Source of the DNA: Myxococcota bacterium | GTDB lineage: Bacteria > Myxococcota_A > UBA9160 > UBA4427 | Assembly: GCA_965250285.1 (NCBI GenBank) | Contig: OZ252299.1 | Location: forward strand, 5,664,001 to 5,728,000 | Length of the DNA stretch: 64,000 nucleotides | Direction: 5' to 3' | Shown: piece by piece, positions 19,081 through 28,658 of the stretch | Layout: each line of letters begins with the position of its first letter | How positions within the stretch are numbered: the stretch's first letter is position 1 | Notes under the pieces: model-generated | What the model saw: only the letters and a program-made list of their open reading frames with translations | Database searches by the model: none | Told to the model about the DNA's origin: nothing | Translations under genes and position numbers: made by a program

Positions 19081-19156
19081 CGCTCGAGGCGTCGCCTTTC
19101 GACGCTTGATCAGCGCTGACGCTCGAAGCGTCGCCTTTCGACGCTTGATCAGCGCT
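19081..19156. repeat. Tandem 39-bp-period repeat, each unit containing a hairpin, overlapping the uvrA stop
   Basis: cgctcga(g/a)gcgtcgcctttcgacgcttgatcagcgct at 19081 and 19120; stem aagcgtcg-ccttt-cgacgctt; between convergent genes. Confidence 0.9.
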
Positions 19157-21986
19157 TGCGGCGACGCGCGACGAGCGGCTTGAGATAGCGGCCGGTGTGG
19201 GTGCCCTTCATGCGGGCCACCTGCTCGGGCGTGCCGGTCGCGACGATGCGTCCGCCATCTGGACCGCCGTCGGGACCGAGGTCGATCACCCAGTCGGCCG
19301 TCTTGATCACGTCGAGGTTGTGCTCGATCACGACGATCGTGTTGCCCGCTTCGACGAGCTCGTTCAGCACGGCGAGCAGCTTGCGCACGTCTTCGAAGTG
19401 CAGGCCGGTCGTCGGCTCGTCGAGGATGTACAGCGTGCGACCGGTGGCGCGCTTCGCGAGCTCGCGCGCGAGCTTGATGCGCTGAGCCTCGCCCCCCGAG
19501 AGCGTGGGCGAGGGCTGGCCGAGGTGCACGTAGTCGAGGCCGACGCGCTCGAGCAGGCGCAAGGGGCCTGCGATCTTCGGGTGGCTCTCGAACAGTTCGA
19601 GAGCCTCACGGACGGTCATCTCGAGCACGTCGGCGATCGAGTGGCCCTTGTACTGGATCGCGAGCGTGGCCTCGTTGAAGCGTCGCCCTTCGCACTCCTC
19701 GCACTTGACGAACACGTCGGCGAGAAAGTGCATCTCGATCTTGCGCACGCCGTCGCCCTCGCAGGCCTCGCAGCGACCGCCCTTCACGTTGAACGAGAAG
19801 CGGCCGGGCTTGTACCCGGCCACGCGCGCATCGGGCAACAGCGCGAAGAAGCTGCGGATCTCGTCGAACACCTTGATGTAGGTGGCGGGATTGCTGCGCG
19901 GCGTGCGGCCGATGGGCTTCTGATCGATGTCGATCACTTTGTCGAGCTGCCCGACGCCCGCGAGCCGCTTGTGGGCGCCCACTCGCTGGGTGCTCTCGGC
20001 GATGAGCTCCTTCGCCACGGCGGGGTAGACGATGTCGTTCACGAGCGTCGACTTGCCGGCACCCGAGACGCCCGTGACCGCCGTCAGGACGCCGAGCGGG
20101 ATCTCGATGTCGACGTTCTTCAGGTTGTTCTCGGTGGCGCCCTGCACCTTGAGTGCGCCGGTCGACGTGCGGCGCTCGCCGGGCACCTCGATCTCGCGTC
20201 GCCCCGACAGATACTGGCCCGTGAGGCTCTGCTTGCTGCGCTCGAGCTGCTTGGGCGTGCCATCGAAGACGATGTGGCCGCCCTGGATGCCGGCGCCCGG
20301 TCCGAAGTCGATCACGTGATCGGCGGCTCGAATCGTCTCTTCGTCGTGTTCGACGACGACGACCGTGTTGCCGATGTCACGCATGCGCTCGAGGGTCTCG
20401 AGCAATCGCTGGTTGTCGCGCTGGTGAAGGCCGATCGACGGTTCATCGAGGATGTAGATCACGCCGGTGAGCTCGCTGCCCACCTGACTCGCGAGTCGAA
20501 TTCGCTGGCTCTCGCCGCCCGAGAGCGTCGGGCCGGCGCGGTCGAGTGAGAGGTAGCCCAGACCGACGGCGCCGAGGAAGTCGAGGCGCGAGCGAATCTC
20601 CTTGAGCACCTCGGTGGCGATCTTGCGCGCCGCCCCCGTGAGCTTGAGACCGCCAAAGAAGCCGCGGGCGTCCTCGACGGTCATGGCCGACACGTCGACG
20701 AGGCTCTTCGATCCGATCAAGACCGAGGCGCTCTCGGTGCGCATCCGGCTGCCGCCGCAGGTGCTGCACTTCGTGTTCGCGATGAACTGCGAGTACCAGC
20801 GCTTCATCGACTCGCTCTTCGTATCCTTGAAGCGCCGCATCAGCCGGGGGATCACGCCCTCCCAACTCATGTCGAACTCACCGCGGCCGCTGCGGTTCTT
20901 CCAGCCGATCTTGAACTTTCGCTCACCCGACCCGAAGAGCAGCATGTCGCGCTTCGACTTCGGGATCTTCGACCACGCCTTGTGGGGATCGATCTTGAGC
21001 TGCTCGAGGATCTGCCGGCGCATACTCGCGCCCCAGCCCGTCTTCTCGCTGGTGTTCTCGCCCCAAGGCTTGACCGCGCCCGACTCGATCGACAGTGCGG
21101 CGTCGGGCACGATCAGCTCGGGGTCGAACTCGAAGCGCGTGCCCAGGCCGTTGCAGTCGGGGCACATGCCCTGGGGCGAGTTGAACGAAAATGCCTGGGG
21201 CGTGAGCTCGGGAAACGAGATCCCACAGTGGGTGCAGGCCGCGGCCTCGGTGAACGTCTGGTCTTCACCGTCGATGTGCGCGAGCAGGCTGCCCTTGCCG
21301 ATGCGCAGCGCGGTCTCGACCGACTCGGTGAGCCGTCGGCCGATGCCCGTGCGCACGACGATGCGATCGATCACGGCCTCGACGGTGTGCTTCTTGCGCT
21401 TGTCGAGCGCCTCGACGTCTTCGATCTCAACGATGTCGCCGTCGATGCGCAGCCGCACGTGTCCGGCGTGCCGCGCGTCGGCCAGCAACTCGCGGTGCTC
21501 GCCCTTGCGATTGACGAGCAGCGGCGCGAGCAGGATCACGCGCGTGCCGTCGCCGTTGCCCTGGAGCGTCTTGGCGATCTGCTGAGCGGTCTGCGCCTGC
21601 ACCTTGCGGCCACACTGATGACAGTGCTGCACGCCGACCCGCGCGTAGAGTACGCGCAGGTAGTCGGCGATCTCGGTGATGGTGCCGACGGTCGACCGTG
21701 GGTTGTTCGACGCGGTCTTCTGCTCGATCGAGATCGTGGGCGACAGGCCGCGAATCGTGTCGTAGCGCGGCTTCTCCATCTGGCCGAGGAACTGGCGGGC
21801 GTAGGCCGACAGGCTCTCGACGTAGCGGCGTTGCCCCTCGGCGTAGAGGGTGTCGAAGGCGAGCGACGATTTGCCCGAGCCCGAGACCCCGCACAGCACG
21901 ACGAGCTTCTTCTTGGGGATCTTCACTTCGACGTCGGCGAGGTTGTGCTCGCGGGCGCCCTTGATGTGGATGTGATCGAGCTCCAT
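19149..21986 (-). CDS. uvrA: Excinuclease ABC subunit A
   Basis: [21 protein letters not shown], zinc fingers, two LSGGE signatures, LDEP Walker B motifs. Confidence 0.98.
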
Positions 21987-22204: not shown

Positions 22205-23458
22205 TTGGACGAGATCCAGCGCTGGATCGCCGAGATTCTGAGCCCGCTCGCCGCGCAGCTGGGGCCGATCTCCCTGCTGCTCGTGGCTTCGGCGGTCGTC
22301 TACCTCGCGACCCGCATCTGGCTGGTGCGCGCGGTGCGTCGCCTGACGCGCATGACCTCGACGACCTGGGACGACGCGCTCGTCGAGCAGAGGGTCTTCC
22401 TGCGGCTCGCGCACGTCGCGCCCGCCTGGGTCATCTACTACTGGCTCCCGACCATCGACAACCTGCCCGAGGAGTTCGTCGCCCTCGTCGAGCGGTTCAT
22501 GGTCGCCGCGATGGTCGTCATCGTGATCACGACGATTTCAGCGCTCCTCGACGTCACCAACGAGATCTATAGCCGAAACCCCGAGTACCGAAGGCGCCCG
22601 ATCAAGGGCTACGTCCAGCTCGCGAACATCTTCCTCTACGCGCTGGCGGCGATCTCGGTCGTCTCGATCCTGCTGAACAAGTCGCCGCTGGTCTTCATCT
22701 CGGGCATCGGTGCGATGACCGCGGTGCTGCTGCTGATCTTCAAGGACACGATCCTCTCGCTCGTGGCCAGCGTGCAGATCGCGACCAACGACATGATCCA
22801 CGTGGGCGACTGGGTCGAGATGCCGCAGTGCGGTGCCGACGGGGACGTCATCGACATCGCCCTGCACACCGTCAAGATCCAGAACTGGGACAAGACGATC
22901 ACGACCGTCCCTACCCACCGATTCATCGAGGAGGGGTTCAAGAACTGGCGGGGCATGTCGAAATCGGGCGGGCGCCGCATCAAGCGCGCCGTGCAGATCG
23001 ACATCTCGTCGATCCGATTCCTCGAGAAGGACGAGATCGATCGATTCGAGAAGTGGTCGCAGCTGCGCGACTACATCGCCGAGAAGAAGCGCGAGCTGGC
23101 CGAGCACAACGCGGACCTCGAGGACGGGGGCACCCCGAAGGCCGATCTGCGGCTGCTCACCAACGTCGGCACGTTCCGCGCCTACGTCTTCAACTTTCTG
23201 AAGCACCACCCCAAGATTCACGATCACGGCTTCACGCTGATCGTCCGCCAGCTGGAGCCCGGCGCCCAGGGCCTGCCGATCGAGCTGTATTGCTTCAGCA
23301 ACGATCAGGACTGGGAGCGCTACGAAGGCATCCAGAGCGACATCTTCGACCACATCCTGGCGATCCTGCCCGAGTTCGGGCTGCGCGCCTACCAGGCCCC
23401 GACCGGGGCCGACTTCGCCGCGCTCGCCGGCCGTATGGGAGGCGCCGGGCATGGCTGA
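22205..23458 (+). CDS. Small-conductance mechanosensitive channel (MscS family, YbdG/MscM-like)
   Basis: TTG start after GGGAGA; FKDTILSLVAS, GDWVEMP..GADGDV, VKIQNWDKT, NWRGM..SGGRRIKR. Confidence 0.92.
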   Translation: MDEIQRWIAEILSPLAAQLGPISLLLVASAVVYLATRIWLVRAVRRLTRMTSTTWDDALVEQRVFLRLAHVAPAWVIYYWLPTIDNLPEEFVALVERFMVAAMVVIVITTISALLDVTNEIYSRNPEYRRRPIKGYVQLANIFLYALAAISVVSILLNKSPLVFISGIGAMTAVLLLIFKDTILSLVASVQIATNDMIHVGDWVEMPQCGADGDVIDIALHTVKIQNWDKTITTVPTHRFIEEGFKNWRGMSKSGGRRIKRAVQIDISSIRFLEKDEIDRFEKWSQLRDYIAEKKRELAEHNADLEDGGTPKADLRLLTNVGTFRAYVFNFLKHHPKIHDHGFTLIVRQLEPGAQGLPIELYCFSNDQDWERYEGIQSDIFDHILAILPEFGLRAYQAPTGADFAALAGRMGGAGHG

Positions 23459-24194
23459 GCTCGACCTCACGGGCAAGGTGGCCGTCGTGACCGGCGCCAG
23501 CCGCGGCATCGGCGCCGATCTGGCCCGGCGATTCCACGCGCGCGGTCTCTCCCTCGGCGTCTGCGCGCGCTCGCAGCCGGTGCTCGAGGACAACGATCAC
23601 GTGGTCTCGCGCTCGGTCGACGTCACTGACGAGACGGCCTTCACACGTTTCGCCGAAGAGGTGGCCGCGCGCTTCGGCGCCATCGACCTGTGGGTGAACA
23701 ACGCGGGCGTGCTCGCGCCGATCAAACCCCTGCGCGACATCGACGCCGCGGCCTTTCGTGCGCATGTCGACGTCAACCTGACCGGCGTCTTCATCGGCGC
23801 ACGGCTCTACGCCCAGCACGTCCGTTCGCGCGCGGGGGGCGGTGTGCTGATCAACGTCTCGTCGGGCGCTGCGGTGAATCCGTACGAAGGCTGGGGACCG
23901 TACTGCGCGGGCAAGGCCAGCCTCGAGATGCTGACCCGGGTGCTCGCCATGGAGGAGCGCGCCGCCGGGCTGCGCGCCCACGCGGTCGCGCCCGGCGTCG
24001 TCGACACCGACATGCAGACGCAGATTCGGGAGAGCACGCAGGCGAACTTTCCGCGCGTCGAGCGCTTTCGGCAGCGCAAGCGCGAGGGCGCGTTCAACAC
24101 CGGGCGCTACGTCGCCGACGAGCTGCTCGCGATCGCGTTCGACCCGGCCCGGGAAACCGACGACGTCCCGCTGCGGCTCGAGGACGAGTACTGA
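23451..24194 (+). CDS. Short-chain dehydrogenase/reductase
   Basis: TGASRGIG, NNAG, YCAGK, PGVVDT.MQ. Confidence 0.9.
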   Translation: MAELDLTGKVAVVTGASRGIGADLARRFHARGLSLGVCARSQPVLEDNDHVVSRSVDVTDETAFTRFAEEVAARFGAIDLWVNNAGVLAPIKPLRDIDAAAFRAHVDVNLTGVFIGARLYAQHVRSRAGGGVLINVSSGAAVNPYEGWGPYCAGKASLEMLTRVLAMEERAAGLRAHAVAPGVVDTDMQTQIRESTQANFPRVERFRQRKREGAFNTGRYVADELLAIAFDPARETDDVPLRLEDEY

Positions 24195-24409: not shown

Positions 24410-24598
24410 TCACGGCACGTCGCGGTCGAGTACGGTCTTGCGTCCGTCGCTGCGCGCGCTCTCGATGGCCTCGTTGCACATCGTTCGGATGCGATCGGAC
24501 AGCGCGCCGAGCACCGACGCGGACGTCTTCATGTCGCCCTGCTCCTTGATGTACGCCTTCACCTTCGATGCGACCACGATCACTTCTGAATCGGCCAT
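24410..24598 (-). CDS. Bacterial histone-fold protein (Bd0055-like), 62 aa
   Basis: MADSEVIVVASKVKAYIKEQGDMKTSASVLGALSDRIRTMCNEAIESARSDGRKTVLDRDVP; G-rich RBS upstream; RKTVxxxD histone clamp; 3' part of ORF 24410..24862. Confidence 0.88.
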   Translation of the reverse strand: MADSEVIVVASKVKAYIKEQGDMKTSASVLGALSDRIRTMCNEAIESARSDGRKTVLDRDVP

Positions 24599-24929
24599 TC
24601 GGTCGAACCCCCCTATCGTGTTCGATCGGGCTCGCACCCGATCGGCTGACCAGACCAGGGATCGCGCCCCGGCCGGGTGACGCCTCAGCGAACGCGCAGG
24701 CTCGCACCGGCGATCCTGCGCGTGCGCGGCACGGCCGTGCAGATCACGGCCCGCCCGCCCCCGCTCCAGACCCGTCTCGCACCCGCCTCTTCGCTTTGGC
24801 CGCTCGCAGGCCGCTTGGAGACCAGGAGATCGAGGCCCTGCTGGAGCGGGCTCTCGTCCCATGAGAATGCACTAGATCGCCCGAAACGCAATCGAGAAGG
24901 GTTTCACGGTGACACGAGAGTGCGGCAGA

Positions 24930-26207
24930 ATGGGGCAGATGCCCCACGATCAAGTCGAGAATCATCGGGTCGGAGACGCATCGGCGTCGGTCACGCTCTG
25001 CGGCGCGACGGTGTGGGACGGCGTCGGCGACCGGCCCACCCCCGAACCCCGCCGGGTGCGGGTCGAGCAGGGCCGCATCGCGGCCGTCGAGGCCGAGTCG
25101 CACGCGCCCGGCGGAGCGAGCCCGGGCGACGGCGAGACCGTCGACCTCGGTGGCTTGTTTCTGATGCCCGGGCTGATCGACGCGCACGTGCATCTGGGCC
25201 TCGACCCGACGATCCGCACTCCCGACGAACAGCTCGCGGTCGCCGAAACCGACCGACGGCTGCGCGCGATCGGTCGCGCGCGGGCGATGGCCGAGGCCGG
25301 CATCACCACGGCGCGCGATCTCGGCGGCGGCGACTACCTCGAGCTCGACCTGCGCGACGGCATCGCCGAAGGACGCGTCGTCGGCCCGCGCGTGCTGTGC
25401 GCCGGACAGCCGCTCACGCGACCCGACGGACACTGTCACTTCTGGGGCGGTGGCGCGGCCACACCCGAACAGGCCCGCACGGTGGTCGCCCGCCAGCTCG
25501 ACCGCGGTGTCGACTGGGTCAAGGTGATGGCGACGGGCGGTGTATTCACGAAGGGCACGAGTGTGCGCGATACCCAGTTCGATGCCGACGAACTCACGGC
25601 GGTCTGCGCTCAGGCCAAAGCCGCCGGCCGCTCGGTGGCGGCGCACTGCCATGGCACGGCGGGCATCCGCAATGCGGCGGTGGGCGGCGTGCGCACCATC
25701 GAACACTGCTCGTTCGTCGGCGACCAGGGCTTTGGCAGCGATCTCGACGCCGACGTCGTCGCCGAGATCGCGCGGGCGGGCGCGATCGTGTCGCCGACGA
25801 TGAACCTCGGTTGGGGACGTCGTCTCACCGACGCCGACGGTCGCGCGACCGACTTCTTCACGCGGATGTCCGCGGCCATGCGGGCCCTGCGCCAGGCCGG
25901 CGTGCCGCTGATCGCTTCGACGGACGCAGGGATCCCCGGTGTCGCCCACCACCGGCTGGCCGAGGGGCTGCTCGCCTTTCAGCGCTACGCGGCGTTCACA
26001 CCGGTCGAGCTGCTTCGAACGGCGACCAGCGGTGCCGCCGACGCGCTCGGGCTCGGCCGAGCAACGGGGCGGATCGCGCCCGGGCTTGCGGCCGACTGCA
26101 TCGCGGTGCGACGCGACCCAACGGTCGACCCGACGACGCTGCTCGATCCGGTCTTCGTCATGACGCGCGGGCGCATCGTGAAGCAGGCGACGCCGCAGGC
26201 GGCATGA
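24930..26207 (+). CDS. Amidohydrolase family metallo-hydrolase (Xaa-Pro dipeptidase-like)
   Basis: PGLIDAHVH, GITTARD, KVMATGG, AHCHG, IEH, STDAG, GRIAPGLAAD. Confidence 0.9.
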   Translation: MGQMPHDQVENHRVGDASASVTLCGATVWDGVGDRPTPEPRRVRVEQGRIAAVEAESHAPGGASPGDGETVDLGGLFLMPGLIDAHVHLGLDPTIRTPDEQLAVAETDRRLRAIGRARAMAEAGITTARDLGGGDYLELDLRDGIAEGRVVGPRVLCAGQPLTRPDGHCHFWGGGAATPEQARTVVARQLDRGVDWVKVMATGGVFTKGTSVRDTQFDADELTAVCAQAKAAGRSVAAHCHGTAGIRNAAVGGVRTIEHCSFVGDQGFGSDLDADVVAEIARAGAIVSPTMNLGWGRRLTDADGRATDFFTRMSAAMRALRQAGVPLIASTDAGIPGVAHHRLAEGLLAFQRYAAFTPVELLRTATSGAADALGLGRATGRIAPGLAADCIAVRRDPTVDPTTLLDPVFVMTRGRIVKQATPQAA

Positions 26208-26316: not shown

Positions 26317-26814
26317 TCAGCGCGCAGCCGCCGCGTGGGCGCCCCGCTCGATGTAGCGCCGCACGGGCAGCGCCAGGTCGGCCAGGTCGATCTGGTCGCG
26401 CCGGCGGAACCCGGCCCAGGCGATCTCCCGTTCGTCGGCGCGCGGCACCACGCGTTCGGCCTGATCGAGGGCCACGTCGAAGAAGTGCACGTGGTCGCGC
26501 CGGCCGAGGTACTCGACCTCGAACGCGTCCACGGGCACGAAGCGCGTCGCATCGAGATCGAGCCCGACCTCCTCGCGGGTTTCGCGACGAGCGGCCGCCT
26601 GGGGCGACTCGCCGCGGCCGATGCCGCCGCCGGGTAGAGTCAGGCCGCCCTTGTACGTATTGGTCACGAAGAGCCAGGCCTCGTTGGGTGAGCCGGCGTC
26701 GCGACGGATCACGGCGTAGGCGCCCGAGACGCTGGGGCGCGTCACGCGCCAGAACACGTGGGCGAAGGGGAAGGCGAGTCGCAGCGCCGATCGGTGGAGC
26801 AGGGCGGGGATCAC
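26317..26814 (-). CDS. NUDIX hydrolase
   Basis: Nudix box GGIGRGESPQAAARRETREEVG. Confidence 0.88.
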   Translation of the reverse strand: MIPALLHRSALRLAFPFAHVFWRVTRPSVSGAYAVIRRDAGSPNEAWLFVTNTYKGGLTLPGGGIGRGESPQAAARRETREEVGLDLDATRFVPVDAFEVEYLGRRDHVHFFDVALDQAERVVPRADEREIAWAGFRRRDQIDLADLALPVRRYIERGAHAAAAR

Positions 26815-26909: not shown

Positions 26910-27587
26910 TCAGCCGAACGCGGACATCGAGGCGAGCCGCTGCGTCACGAACGCGTCGATGGAATCACGGACGGCGTCGGACGTCGAGTCGAAGACGAGC
27001 CCGGCGCCTTCGCCGGTCCGCCCGACGCAGGATGCGCGCGCGTGCACGGGCTCGCTGCCGGGCAGGGCGAACTCGACGTTGATCTTCGTGCCCGGCTCGA
27101 TGCGCTCGTCGTCCCGCACATGGCAGCCGTGGATCGAGAGCGAGTCGAGCTGGGCGACGAATCGCTCACCGCCGTGGGCGATGCGCGCGACCAGCTCGGT
27201 CGGCACCCGCGGCGCGCCGCGCGGGGTCGACTCGAGGGCGCGCTGCAGCATGGGGTAGAGCAGGGAGAGCCGAACCGGGCGGAGCAGCTGGCCGACGATG
27301 CGCGGGTCGTCCTTGGGGCGCGGCTCGGCGCCCGTGACAACCACGATGGGCGTGTCGGGGTCGACGCTCGGCGGCGGAAGCCGCTCGAGGTGTCGATCGC
27401 CGACGAGCCGGATGCTCGGATCGAACGTCGGATCGTCGAAGCGGCCGACGAACGCAGCCTGAACGACGTCGTAGCCGAGGCCACCGAGGGCGGCGCGGGT
27501 CAGCCGGCTGAAGCTCTGCGGATCGACGTAGCTGGCGATGATTCCGCGTTCGGCGGTACGGTCGTCGTTGATCATGTCCGTTCTCAT
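26910..27587 (-). CDS. PilZ domain protein with degenerate receiver-like N-terminus
   Basis: RGAPR (RxxxR), SLSIHG, GAGLVF; start uncertain. Confidence 0.75.
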   Translation of the reverse strand: MRTDMINDDRTAERGIIASYVDPQSFSRLTRAALGGLGYDVVQAAFVGRFDDPTFDPSIRLVGDRHLERLPPPSVDPDTPIVVVTGAEPRPKDDPRIVGQLLRPVRLSLLYPMLQRALESTPRGAPRVPTELVARIAHGGERFVAQLDSLSIHGCHVRDDERIEPGTKINVEFALPGSEPVHARASCVGRTGEGAGLVFDSTSDAVRDSIDAFVTQRLASMSAFG

Positions 27588-27704
27588 CGGCCGGTTGCGG
27601 TCGAGCTTGACCTGCTTGCCGGTGCATTCCACGAATCTCGCTGGCCTTGCGAATATCGAGCAGGTGATCGAGGGCTTTTGCCCACGAGTCAGGAGGCGAA
27701 CGTC

Positions 27705-28658
27705 GTGAGTTCCGAAGCCGGGCCCGGGGCCGGACGCTGCGCCCCGTCGAGCACCGGTCCCGCTCATCCGGGCACGATGCTCGCTGCGCTGCTCGCCTGG
27801 CTCGATGCACGGAGTCGCGGCGACGCGATCCATCTGCGCCTCGAAGACCTCGACCCCGATCGCTGCAAGCCCGAGTACGCCGACCATCTTCTCGAAGCCT
27901 TCGCGTGGATGGGTCTCGAGTTCGATGGGGTGCGGCGGCAGAGCGAGTCGGCCCCGCTGCACGAGGCGGCCCTCGACCGGCTGGCGGCGATGGGGCGGCT
28001 CTACCCGTGCCGCTGCTCACGTTCAGAGCTGCGCCGCTCGGCCGACCGCGCCGCCGACGGCAGCTTCATCTATCCCGGCACGTGTCGCGGGCGGGCTCTG
28101 CCGACCCTCGAGTCGGGCGGCTGGCGCAGCGTCGACGAGCCGCTTCGTGTCGCGCTGCCGCCGGGCCGAATCGAGCCGGTCGATGAAGGCGGCCGTGATC
28201 TCGCCGCCGACCCGAGTGTCGGGTACGGCGATCCGATCGTGCGGCGACGCGACGGGGCCGTGGCCTACCAGCTCGCCGGGGTCGTCGACGACGCGGCGCT
28301 CGGGGTGACGCGCGTCGTCCGGGGGCACGACCTCGCTGCGAGCACGGCGACGCAGTGCGCGATCGCGTCGCTCCTCGATCTCGAGTGGCCGGTCTATCGA
28401 CACCATCTGCTGTTGCTCGAGCCGCACGGCGGCAAGCTCGCCAAGCTGCACGGCTCGGTCGGCTTCGACGCCGTGCGCGCGCACATGGACGGCGAGACCC
28501 TCGTCGGTCTGCTCGCCCACGCGCTCGGTCTGCTCGACCGCGCCGAGCCGGTGACGCCCGTATCTCTCGTCGATGCCTTCGACTGGGCGCGCGTGCGTCG
28601 CGAAGACCGCGCTGCAGTCTGGGATGCCGAGCGCGGGGTGCTCTCGTTCGGGGCCTAG
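27705..28658 (+). CDS. gluQ: Glutamyl-Q tRNA(Asp) synthetase-like (truncated GluRS catalytic domain)
   Basis: RCAPSSTGPAHPG, LRLEDLD, YPCRCSR..YPGTC, RRRDG..AYQLA.VVDD, VRG.DL, KLAK; no anticodon-binding domain. Confidence 0.8.
   Translation: MSSEAGPGAGRCAPSSTGPAHPGTMLAALLAWLDARSRGDAIHLRLEDLDPDRCKPEYADHLLEAFAWMGLEFDGVRRQSESAPLHEAALDRLAAMGRLYPCRCSRSELRRSADRAADGSFIYPGTCRGRALPTLESGGWRSVDEPLRVALPPGRIEPVDEGGRDLAADPSVGYGDPIVRRRDGAVAYQLAGVVDDAALGVTRVVRGHDLAASTATQCAIASLLDLEWPVYRHHLLLLEPHGGKLAKLHGSVGFDAVRAHMDGETLVGLLAHALGLLDRAEPVTPVSLVDAFDWARVRREDRAAVWDAERGVLSFGA

Follow-up and report, generated by a model that had tools for sequence, protein, structure and literature searches.

A predicted bacterial-dimer histone accompanies an FtF histone in a Myxococcota genome without detectable HU

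Placing a small histone in the biology of its host requires both an assignment to a subfamily and a census of the other nucleoid proteins in the lineage. Our analysis of a 62-codon gene from a Myxococcota bacterium indicates, by alignment and residue comparison, that its product is a bacterial-dimer alpha3 histone, one more member of a class described in 2023-2024. The histone class, including its occurrence in this phylum, is already known, and what is new is the setting, a class of bacteria in which nearly all genomes searched lack HU and which carries two or three histone types. It is the face-to-face (FtF) histone, encoded by a second gene, and not the gene under study, that tracks the absence of HU. 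The window, the whole stretch of 64,000 nucleotides that was analysed, spans positions 5,664,001-5,728,000 of a source genome assembled as a single contig (6.25 Mb, 68.6% GC, 95.4% complete), and "family", "order", "class" and "phylum" in our counts are those of this genome. Features are collected in the table below.

Features of the histone locus (window coordinates) and related genes elsewhere in the source genome
Feature	Position	Strand	Remarks
UvrA-like protein (presumed)	19149-21986	-	
MscS channel	22205-23458	+	
Short-chain dehydrogenase (SDR)	23451-24194	+	convergent neighbour; Pfam adh_short
Histone gene, 62 aa, alpha3, predicted bacterial-dimer (HBb/Bd0055) type	24410-24598	-	ATG 24598, stop TGA 24412-24410
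Open upstream extension, 88 codons	24599-24862	-	outside the protein; likely 5′ untranslated leader
Ribosome-binding site AGGGGGG	24608-24614	-	read in the sequence; orthologues have purine-rich tracts at the same place
Promoter-like element TTGCGT-N16-CATTCT	24864-24891	-	family-conserved candidate pointing to the histone gene, 265 nt 5′ of its ATG
Amidohydrolase	24909-26207	+	divergent neighbour; start uncertain, 24909-24939; Pfam Amidohydro_1
NUDIX hydrolase	26317-26814	-	
PilZ-domain protein	26910-27632	-	
Glutamyl-tRNA-synthetase catalytic-domain protein	27777-28658	+	
FtF histone, 70 aa, basic N-terminal tail	genome 5118605-5118817 (G000:C1; L283:4606-4818)	+	FtF signature
Lysine-rich ORF, 93 aa	G000:C1:1256558-1256839 (L284:4059-4340)	+	no Pfam match

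The histone codons form the 3′ end of a 150-aa open reading frame on the minus strand (24410-24862), and five kinds of evidence lead us to prefer the start at 24598. An ATG lies within three codons of the equivalent position at all 25 family loci compared, and five of the 25 have an in-frame stop no more than three codons 5′ of the short start; ATG 24862 is ACG in a same-genus genome, with the stretch 24599-24862 rich in indels between the two; an ab initio gene caller trained on the source genome chose 24598; and substitutions relative to 24 orthologues fall mostly at the third codon position (0.15/0.10/0.46 for positions 1/2/3). The 150-aa reading from 24862 is ruled out by the ACG, the indels and the orthologue stops, and the promoter-like element, if it is a promoter, gives a further reason against that start, since it ends 1 nt before ATG 24862. 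The gene is shown to be under purifying selection. Exact translation and a G-rich tract 9 nt 5′ of the ATG agree with the original prediction, made from the letters alone, that the last 62 codons of the frame are a gene with its own ribosome-binding site, and the intergenic space that it noted on both sides measures 215 nt to the SDR gene and about 310 nt to the amidohydrolase gene. Its warning that such a gene is easily missed or mis-started was well placed: the protein reaches 16.7 bits against Pfam PF00808, where the cut-off is 21.4, and 24.3 bits against NCBIfam NF043032, where it is 50, and so falls short of both thresholds.

An Rfam scan at the locus returned no family (best E 0.83), and neither a terminator-like site nor a consensus sigma-70 site was called there. 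One RNA run, which contained a small share of the sequence words, assembled at a depth of 4-6 into a contig of 153 nt spanning 24783-24935 and, in the histone gene, a piece of 58 nt with seven differences; these pieces are no evidence of transcription of the histone gene. Its codon-usage score lies at the 89th percentile among 5,170 predicted genes, a rank on which we do not rely because bias is weak in this genome and the gene has 61 codons. At one of its conserved positions the promoter-like element (CATTCT) deviates from the sigma-70 consensus, and a standard sigma-70 scan did not call it. Its generalized form, TTGC[AG][CT]-N16/17-CATNCT, occurs upstream on the sense strand at 22 of 25 family loci, and at none of the 25 on the antisense strand or downstream. 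Shuffled sequences give an expectation of 0.01, an optimistic figure since the pattern was derived from those very loci, and the source genome holds seven matches in all.

Homologues of the amidohydrolase, the glutamyl-tRNA-synthetase-like protein and the SDR lie within 4 kb of the histone at 45, 44 and 38 of 50 loci, respectively, many of them from close kin. For the SDR and amidohydrolase genes this is conserved gene order, and a functional link to the histone is putative at most. The order of the UvrA-like, MscS, NUDIX, PilZ and glutamyl-tRNA-synthetase-like neighbours is partly kept across the family. A mobile origin of the histone gene was considered and rejected because the gene order is stable.

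In a phmmer search of the PDB, the HBb/Bd0055 chains 8CMP and 8FVX (E 1.2e-14 and 1.4e-14) were the best matches by eight orders of magnitude, followed by HLp (E 7.6e-7) and HTkC (E 1e-4); further structures of HBb/Bd0055 are 9EZZ, 9F0E and 8FW7. The window histone aligns to HBb over residues 4-61 without gaps, with 31 of 58 residues identical (53%), and its chain stops two residues past the clamp aspartate. The predicted Bd0055-type identity was thereby confirmed and narrowed to the bacterial-dimer alpha3 subfamily, and the short alpha2 helix and RKTVxxxD clamp that had been predicted are both matched in the HBb alignment. The short alpha2 and truncated alpha3, judged by sequence alone, fit this type, and the D-x-R-K-T-x4-D clamp is kept. 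Hu et al. list the ten residues with most DNA contacts in simulations of HBb (10.1101/2023.02.26.530074). Eight of them are identical in the window histone, the exceptions being T8 to A10 and N22 to K24, and none of the ten positions varies, or varies more than slightly, among 107 aligned homologues (out of 120 listed). Of the clamp residues and alpha1 lysines, R53, T55, D60, K12 and K14 are found in 107/107, K54 in 106/107 and K18 in 104/107.

Schwab et al. (PMC11390915) define bacterial dimers as close to HBb and devoid of the FtF residue pair R48/N52; Myxococcota_A is among the host lineages that they name. The FtF tetramer residues are missing from the window histone, which has S47 and D51 opposite HLp R49 and N53, and the full FtF motif, R-x3-N-x-R-x-T-x4-D, occurs at 0/25 loci of its family. 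The full-length alpha2/alpha3 and the tetramer histidine of archaeal HMf-type histones are absent as well, with S50 opposite Bd0055 A48 at the position of that histidine and HMf-type matches only at E 0.06-0.9. In a tree of 70 histone domains and 60 columns, in which the bootstrap was unsettled and HBb itself was left out, window-type histones group with dimer and ZZ histones, and the branch to the FtF histones has support of 100/97; 28 of the 32 ZZ rows fall in a separate supported branch, and a grouping of the short form with spirochaete short histones is neither supported nor rejected (p-AU 0.39). A search of cluster representatives gave 554 relatives at E up to 0.001, with two-domain relatives ranking top. 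Taken together, the HBb match, the contact residues, the missing FtF residues and the tree argue for membership in the known subfamily, and the protein is predicted to be a dimer. The monomer model was of low confidence (pLDDT 63.9, pTM 0.38); Foldseek found no match with it, and a wide structural search with the same weak model returned generic helical matches (best Z 5.6), with histone-fold chains at Z 4.3-4.7. The net charge is 0 (10 basic and 10 acidic residues) and stays between -2 and +2 in 25 orthologues, and residues K13 and K18 of HBb are replaced, so that affinity for DNA may be weaker than that of HBb.

The original prediction had proposed a survey of related genomes, and in ours the stand-alone form, at 70% identity or more, is present in 58 of 61 family genomes, all at least 80% complete. 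A weaker match (40-60% identity) occurs in 47/61, and three genomes (80-89% complete) have the weaker match only, profile search included. All 19 weaker-band loci that were fetched, nine from the family and ten from other families, carry a ZZ-type Cys/His motif. In other families of the order 13 of 16 genomes have a match, of which two look stand-alone and one is confirmed; most of these families, which also lack HU, are missing the stand-alone form. No ZZ histone was found in the source genome (best E 0.59 with a ZZ-domain profile), and the window histone has no Cys/His domain. Family genome G041 has two stand-alone dimer-histone copies (C135:36350-36526 and 253333-253506), and order genome G136 has a single frame that encodes two tandem histone domains (C87:5585-5968). 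Eight records titled Spirochaetaceae (L026, L027, L035, L055, L057, L060, L061, L066) hold a histone 72-92% identical to the window histone; these records likely belong to this lineage under a wrong title, since the contig stretch of L026 is that of the same-genus genome G001.

A broad profile of 197 histone domains finds exactly two histone genes in the source genome. The FtF gene was first seen in a list of small predicted proteins, having been overlooked because PF00808 and the window-histone profiles, which miss it, are narrow; its discovery overturned the reading of this genome as having a single histone, and the broad profile confirmed it. With both histone genes below the Pfam cut-offs, the lineage falls into an annotation blind spot. 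Tailed FtF histones of Myxococcota have been described before (PMC11390915). The FtF motif is present in 45/45 FtF loci fetched, with R56, N60, R62, T64 and D69 invariant in 59 homologues, and the FtF profile finds HTkC (9F2C) as its best PDB match (E 5.9e-6); the structural model is weak (pLDDT 66.4), with HTkC as the top Foldseek row at E 1.8. A near-consensus sigma-70-like motif lies 125 nt 5′ of the gene, and TTGACN-N16/17-TAnnnT occurs in most of the loci shown. The FtF histone is found in 59/61 family genomes, and both short histones together in 56/61; the two proteins are about 25% identical over 52 residues and their genes are unlinked. The 93-aa ORF (52% lysine, KKA/KKK repeats, strong ribosome-binding site) has an N-terminus that resembles the FtF tail, and we take it to resemble histone-H1-like proteins. 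Two more predicted proteins have long lysine/alanine repeats (G000:C1:1699320-1700246, plus strand, and 4072665-4073222, minus strand). As a separate observation on this genome, the translations at G000:C1:1203980-1209636 were identified by reading as the main ribosomal-protein cluster, which presumably lacks L3, L24 and S14, with L24-like and S14-like genes, as we take them to be, at 6234099 and 5397920.

HU-family genes are reported from 92.8% of bacterial genomes (PMC10627809). Our search for nucleoid proteins covered HU/IHF and histones. The two PF00216 proteins of the source genome score above the NCBIfam cut-offs for IHF-alpha and IHF-beta, and neither 27 HU-type queries from other genomes (E < 0.01) nor a divergent HU query matched anything beyond these two loci. 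The enterobacterial HU model NF007945 misses the divergent HU type, and the surveys were rerun with PF00216 and the divergent query. PF00216 matches number two in 52 of the 61 family genomes, one in four and three in five; no family genome exceeds 76 bits against an HU model, compared with 85-116 for the strongest HU-type proteins elsewhere. Of 51 loci read in the family and the order, 49 encode IHF, and the other two are the divergent HU-like genes of genome G033; matches beyond these 51 were assigned by score band only. The five extra matches in the family divide into two fragments of IHF, one HU-like fragment that is interrupted, one HU-like stretch with a deletion inside it, and a divergent HU-like ORF from a contig of 1 kb. 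Degraded HU-like pieces in family-typical neighbourhoods (L242, G048:C185:3553-3735; L243, G041:C157:480-590) may be decayed or foreign HU genes. We found no intact classical HU in the 61 family genomes, two of which show neither an HU nor an FtF gene.

An even phylum sample of 121 genomes at least 90% complete, 23 in the class and 98 outside it, places these counts in context. Within the class, 21/23 genomes have two PF00216 matches; a single genome has three, each of them IHF, and another, G033, carries two divergent HU-like genes in addition (C87:91569-91898 and C635:16785-17111; L163 and L164; 81% identical to each other). The FtF histone is present in 22/23, the same 22 that have no HU-like match, the exception being G033. 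Strong matches to the HU type of G033 occur in 19 genomes from other classes, the GC content of its HU contigs agrees with its other loci, and its FtF absence could be an assembly gap, given that the assembly has 820 contigs. Three genomes of its family were available, the third of which (74% complete) showed neither HU nor FtF histone, and the swap could not be replicated there. Among further genomes of the order, 8/10 have the FtF histone, and the two misses are 74% and 78% complete. Outside the class, 90/98 genomes have at least three PF00216 matches, 1/98 matches the FtF query and 8/98 match the window histone; an HU-type protein is confirmed by sequence or strong match in 40/98, and extra PF00216 matches can be IHF duplicates. 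Seven of the eight outside genomes that match the window histone keep HU-like genes. Five of the eight outside genomes with no more than two PF00216 matches were read: two have only IHF-alpha and IHF-beta and no detected histone, one has IHF-alpha only and two have HU-like proteins. The two without HU or a match to either histone query (G091 and G128; L261, L262, L266, L267) belong to another class and may use some other nucleoid protein.

The loss of HU in the class was probably one event, and no statistical test applies to the class pattern because the class is one lineage with possibly one loss. Most HU-less families of the order are without the stand-alone form, which weakens the reading that the window histone replaces HU and argues that this gene is not what allowed HU to be lost. 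The main organiser is more plausibly the FtF histone, given its tracking of HU absence and the near-consensus sigma-70 motif at most loci shown, and the window histone is likely an added DNA bender. The suggestion in the original prediction that this lineage may use a histone-based nucleoid gains from the lack of any HU found, the second histone and the H1-like protein; HU absence is tracked best by FtF, not by the window histone, and the suggestion stays conjectural.

Comparison with characterized systems sharpens these distinctions. Likeness to HBb/Bd0055 extends from the identity without gaps, the short alpha2, the alpha3 length, the clamp, eight of ten contacts and the lack of FtF residues to the occurrence as a stand-alone gene; the window histone differs in K24 and A10, which are fixed in the family, in its neutral charge and in its end two residues past the clamp aspartate. 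Besides HBb, B. bacteriovorus has another histone and HU (PMC12701072), with no FtF histone reported, whereas the source genome has an FtF histone and no detectable HU. HLp (Leptospira perolatii, 9QT0-9QT2; PMC12701072) and HTkC (9F2C; PMC11390915) share the alpha3 superfamily with the window histone, which lacks their R and N tetramer residues; the FtF histone of the source genome is a separate gene outside the window. Leptospira, with one FtF histone, is said to encode no canonical nucleoid proteins (PMC12701072), and the single histone reported there contrasts with two or three types in the source family. ZZ histones (e.g. D0LYE7; PMC11390915) have a dimer-like C-terminal domain, 40-60% identical to the window histone, and differ in having a zinc finger. 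HBb is described as a DNA bender in the manner of HU/IHF proteins (PMC11390915), and by extension from HBb the window histone may resemble HU (PF00216) in working mode, with an unrelated fold. In HTkC, the change R45A, with loss of that arginine, turns an FtF histone into an HBb-like bender (10.64898/2025.12.06.692711).

We propose that the window histone probably acts as a homodimer of the HBb kind, binding the DNA backbone irrespective of sequence and bending it. Two subunits would pair head to tail, as in HBb, and contact backbone phosphates through alpha1 (S11, K12, K14, K18) and the L1-L2 loops (K24, T25, S26, K54, T55, R59), producing a bend over roughly 35 bp with no wrapping. The distribution data would fit a division of labour: the FtF histone, present across the class, would be the main wrapper, and the window histone, a family-level addition, would contribute HU-like flexible bending and might be regulated separately. 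Whether HBb itself binds as a filament or by bending is disputed (PMC11390915, PMC10627809, 10.1101/2023.02.26.530074). Hocher et al. crystallised Bd0055 end-on on straight DNA and tied this arrangement to the missing tetramer residues and an N-terminal contact (PMC10627809), both of which are kept here, and the window histone could accordingly be imagined to coat straight DNA as a nucleohistone filament, protecting rather than bending it. Later structures together with tethered-particle, topology and circularisation assays of HBb point to bending and no MNase protection (10.1101/2023.02.26.530074), and we regard a filament as improbable.

A reading that competes more closely with an HBb-like bender, possible yet still rather unlikely in our estimation, is that the window histone is a minor or conditional DNA-binding factor, used in stress, dormancy or a life-cycle stage, while FtF, IHF and the H1-like protein organise the bulk nucleoid. 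Its neutral charge, a promoter-like motif off the sigma-70 consensus (CATTCT) compared with a near-consensus one at the FtF gene, and the dispensability of the stand-alone form in most families of the order speak for such a role; its retention in 58/61 genomes of the family, with identity of at least 70% and unvarying DNA-contact residues, and the rank of its closest studied relative, HBb, among the most abundant nucleoid proteins (PMC11390915, PMC10627809), speak against it. Pairing with the FtF or a ZZ histone, in heterodimers or mixed oligomers, would accord with the co-occurrence of both short histones in 56/61 family genomes and with their shared short alpha3 pattern at about 25% identity over 52 residues. 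Against such partners, the genes are unlinked and their promoter motifs differ, FtF occurs without a window-type histone in most other families, the source genome has no ZZ histone, and the alpha3 histones studied to date are homo-oligomers (10.1101/2023.02.26.530074, PMC12701072); we judge mixed assemblies very unlikely. Finally, the neutral charge could reflect a histone fold that no longer binds DNA and has taken on another role, as Hocher et al. note for some histone folds (PMC10627809), but what stays invariant across 107 homologues is the set of residues with which HBb contacts DNA, and we give this idea hardly any credence.

Whether bacterial histones cooperate with or substitute for HU-type proteins has been stated as an open question (PMC12701072), and our literature search, with subscription papers mostly outside it, found no report of HU loss in this lineage or of a dimer and an FtF histone paired. 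As a tentative scenario, somewhat short of an even chance, the whole class may have swapped HU for histones: FtF would wrap DNA in all its members, the family would have gained a bender of HBb type, in many cases a ZZ histone as well, and in this genome an H1-like lysine-rich protein, and G033 would have regained HU and lost FtF.

If a division of labour between bender and wrapper is correct, these bacteria would have a multi-histone chromatin. Both experimentally studied types of bacterial histone, the bending dimer and the wrapping tetramer, are found together in 56 of the 61 genomes of the family. Because the two types co-occur where no intact classical HU was found, the family offers a second lineage, beside Leptospira, for the idea that histones substitute for HU, and in the source lineage histones may do HU's job.
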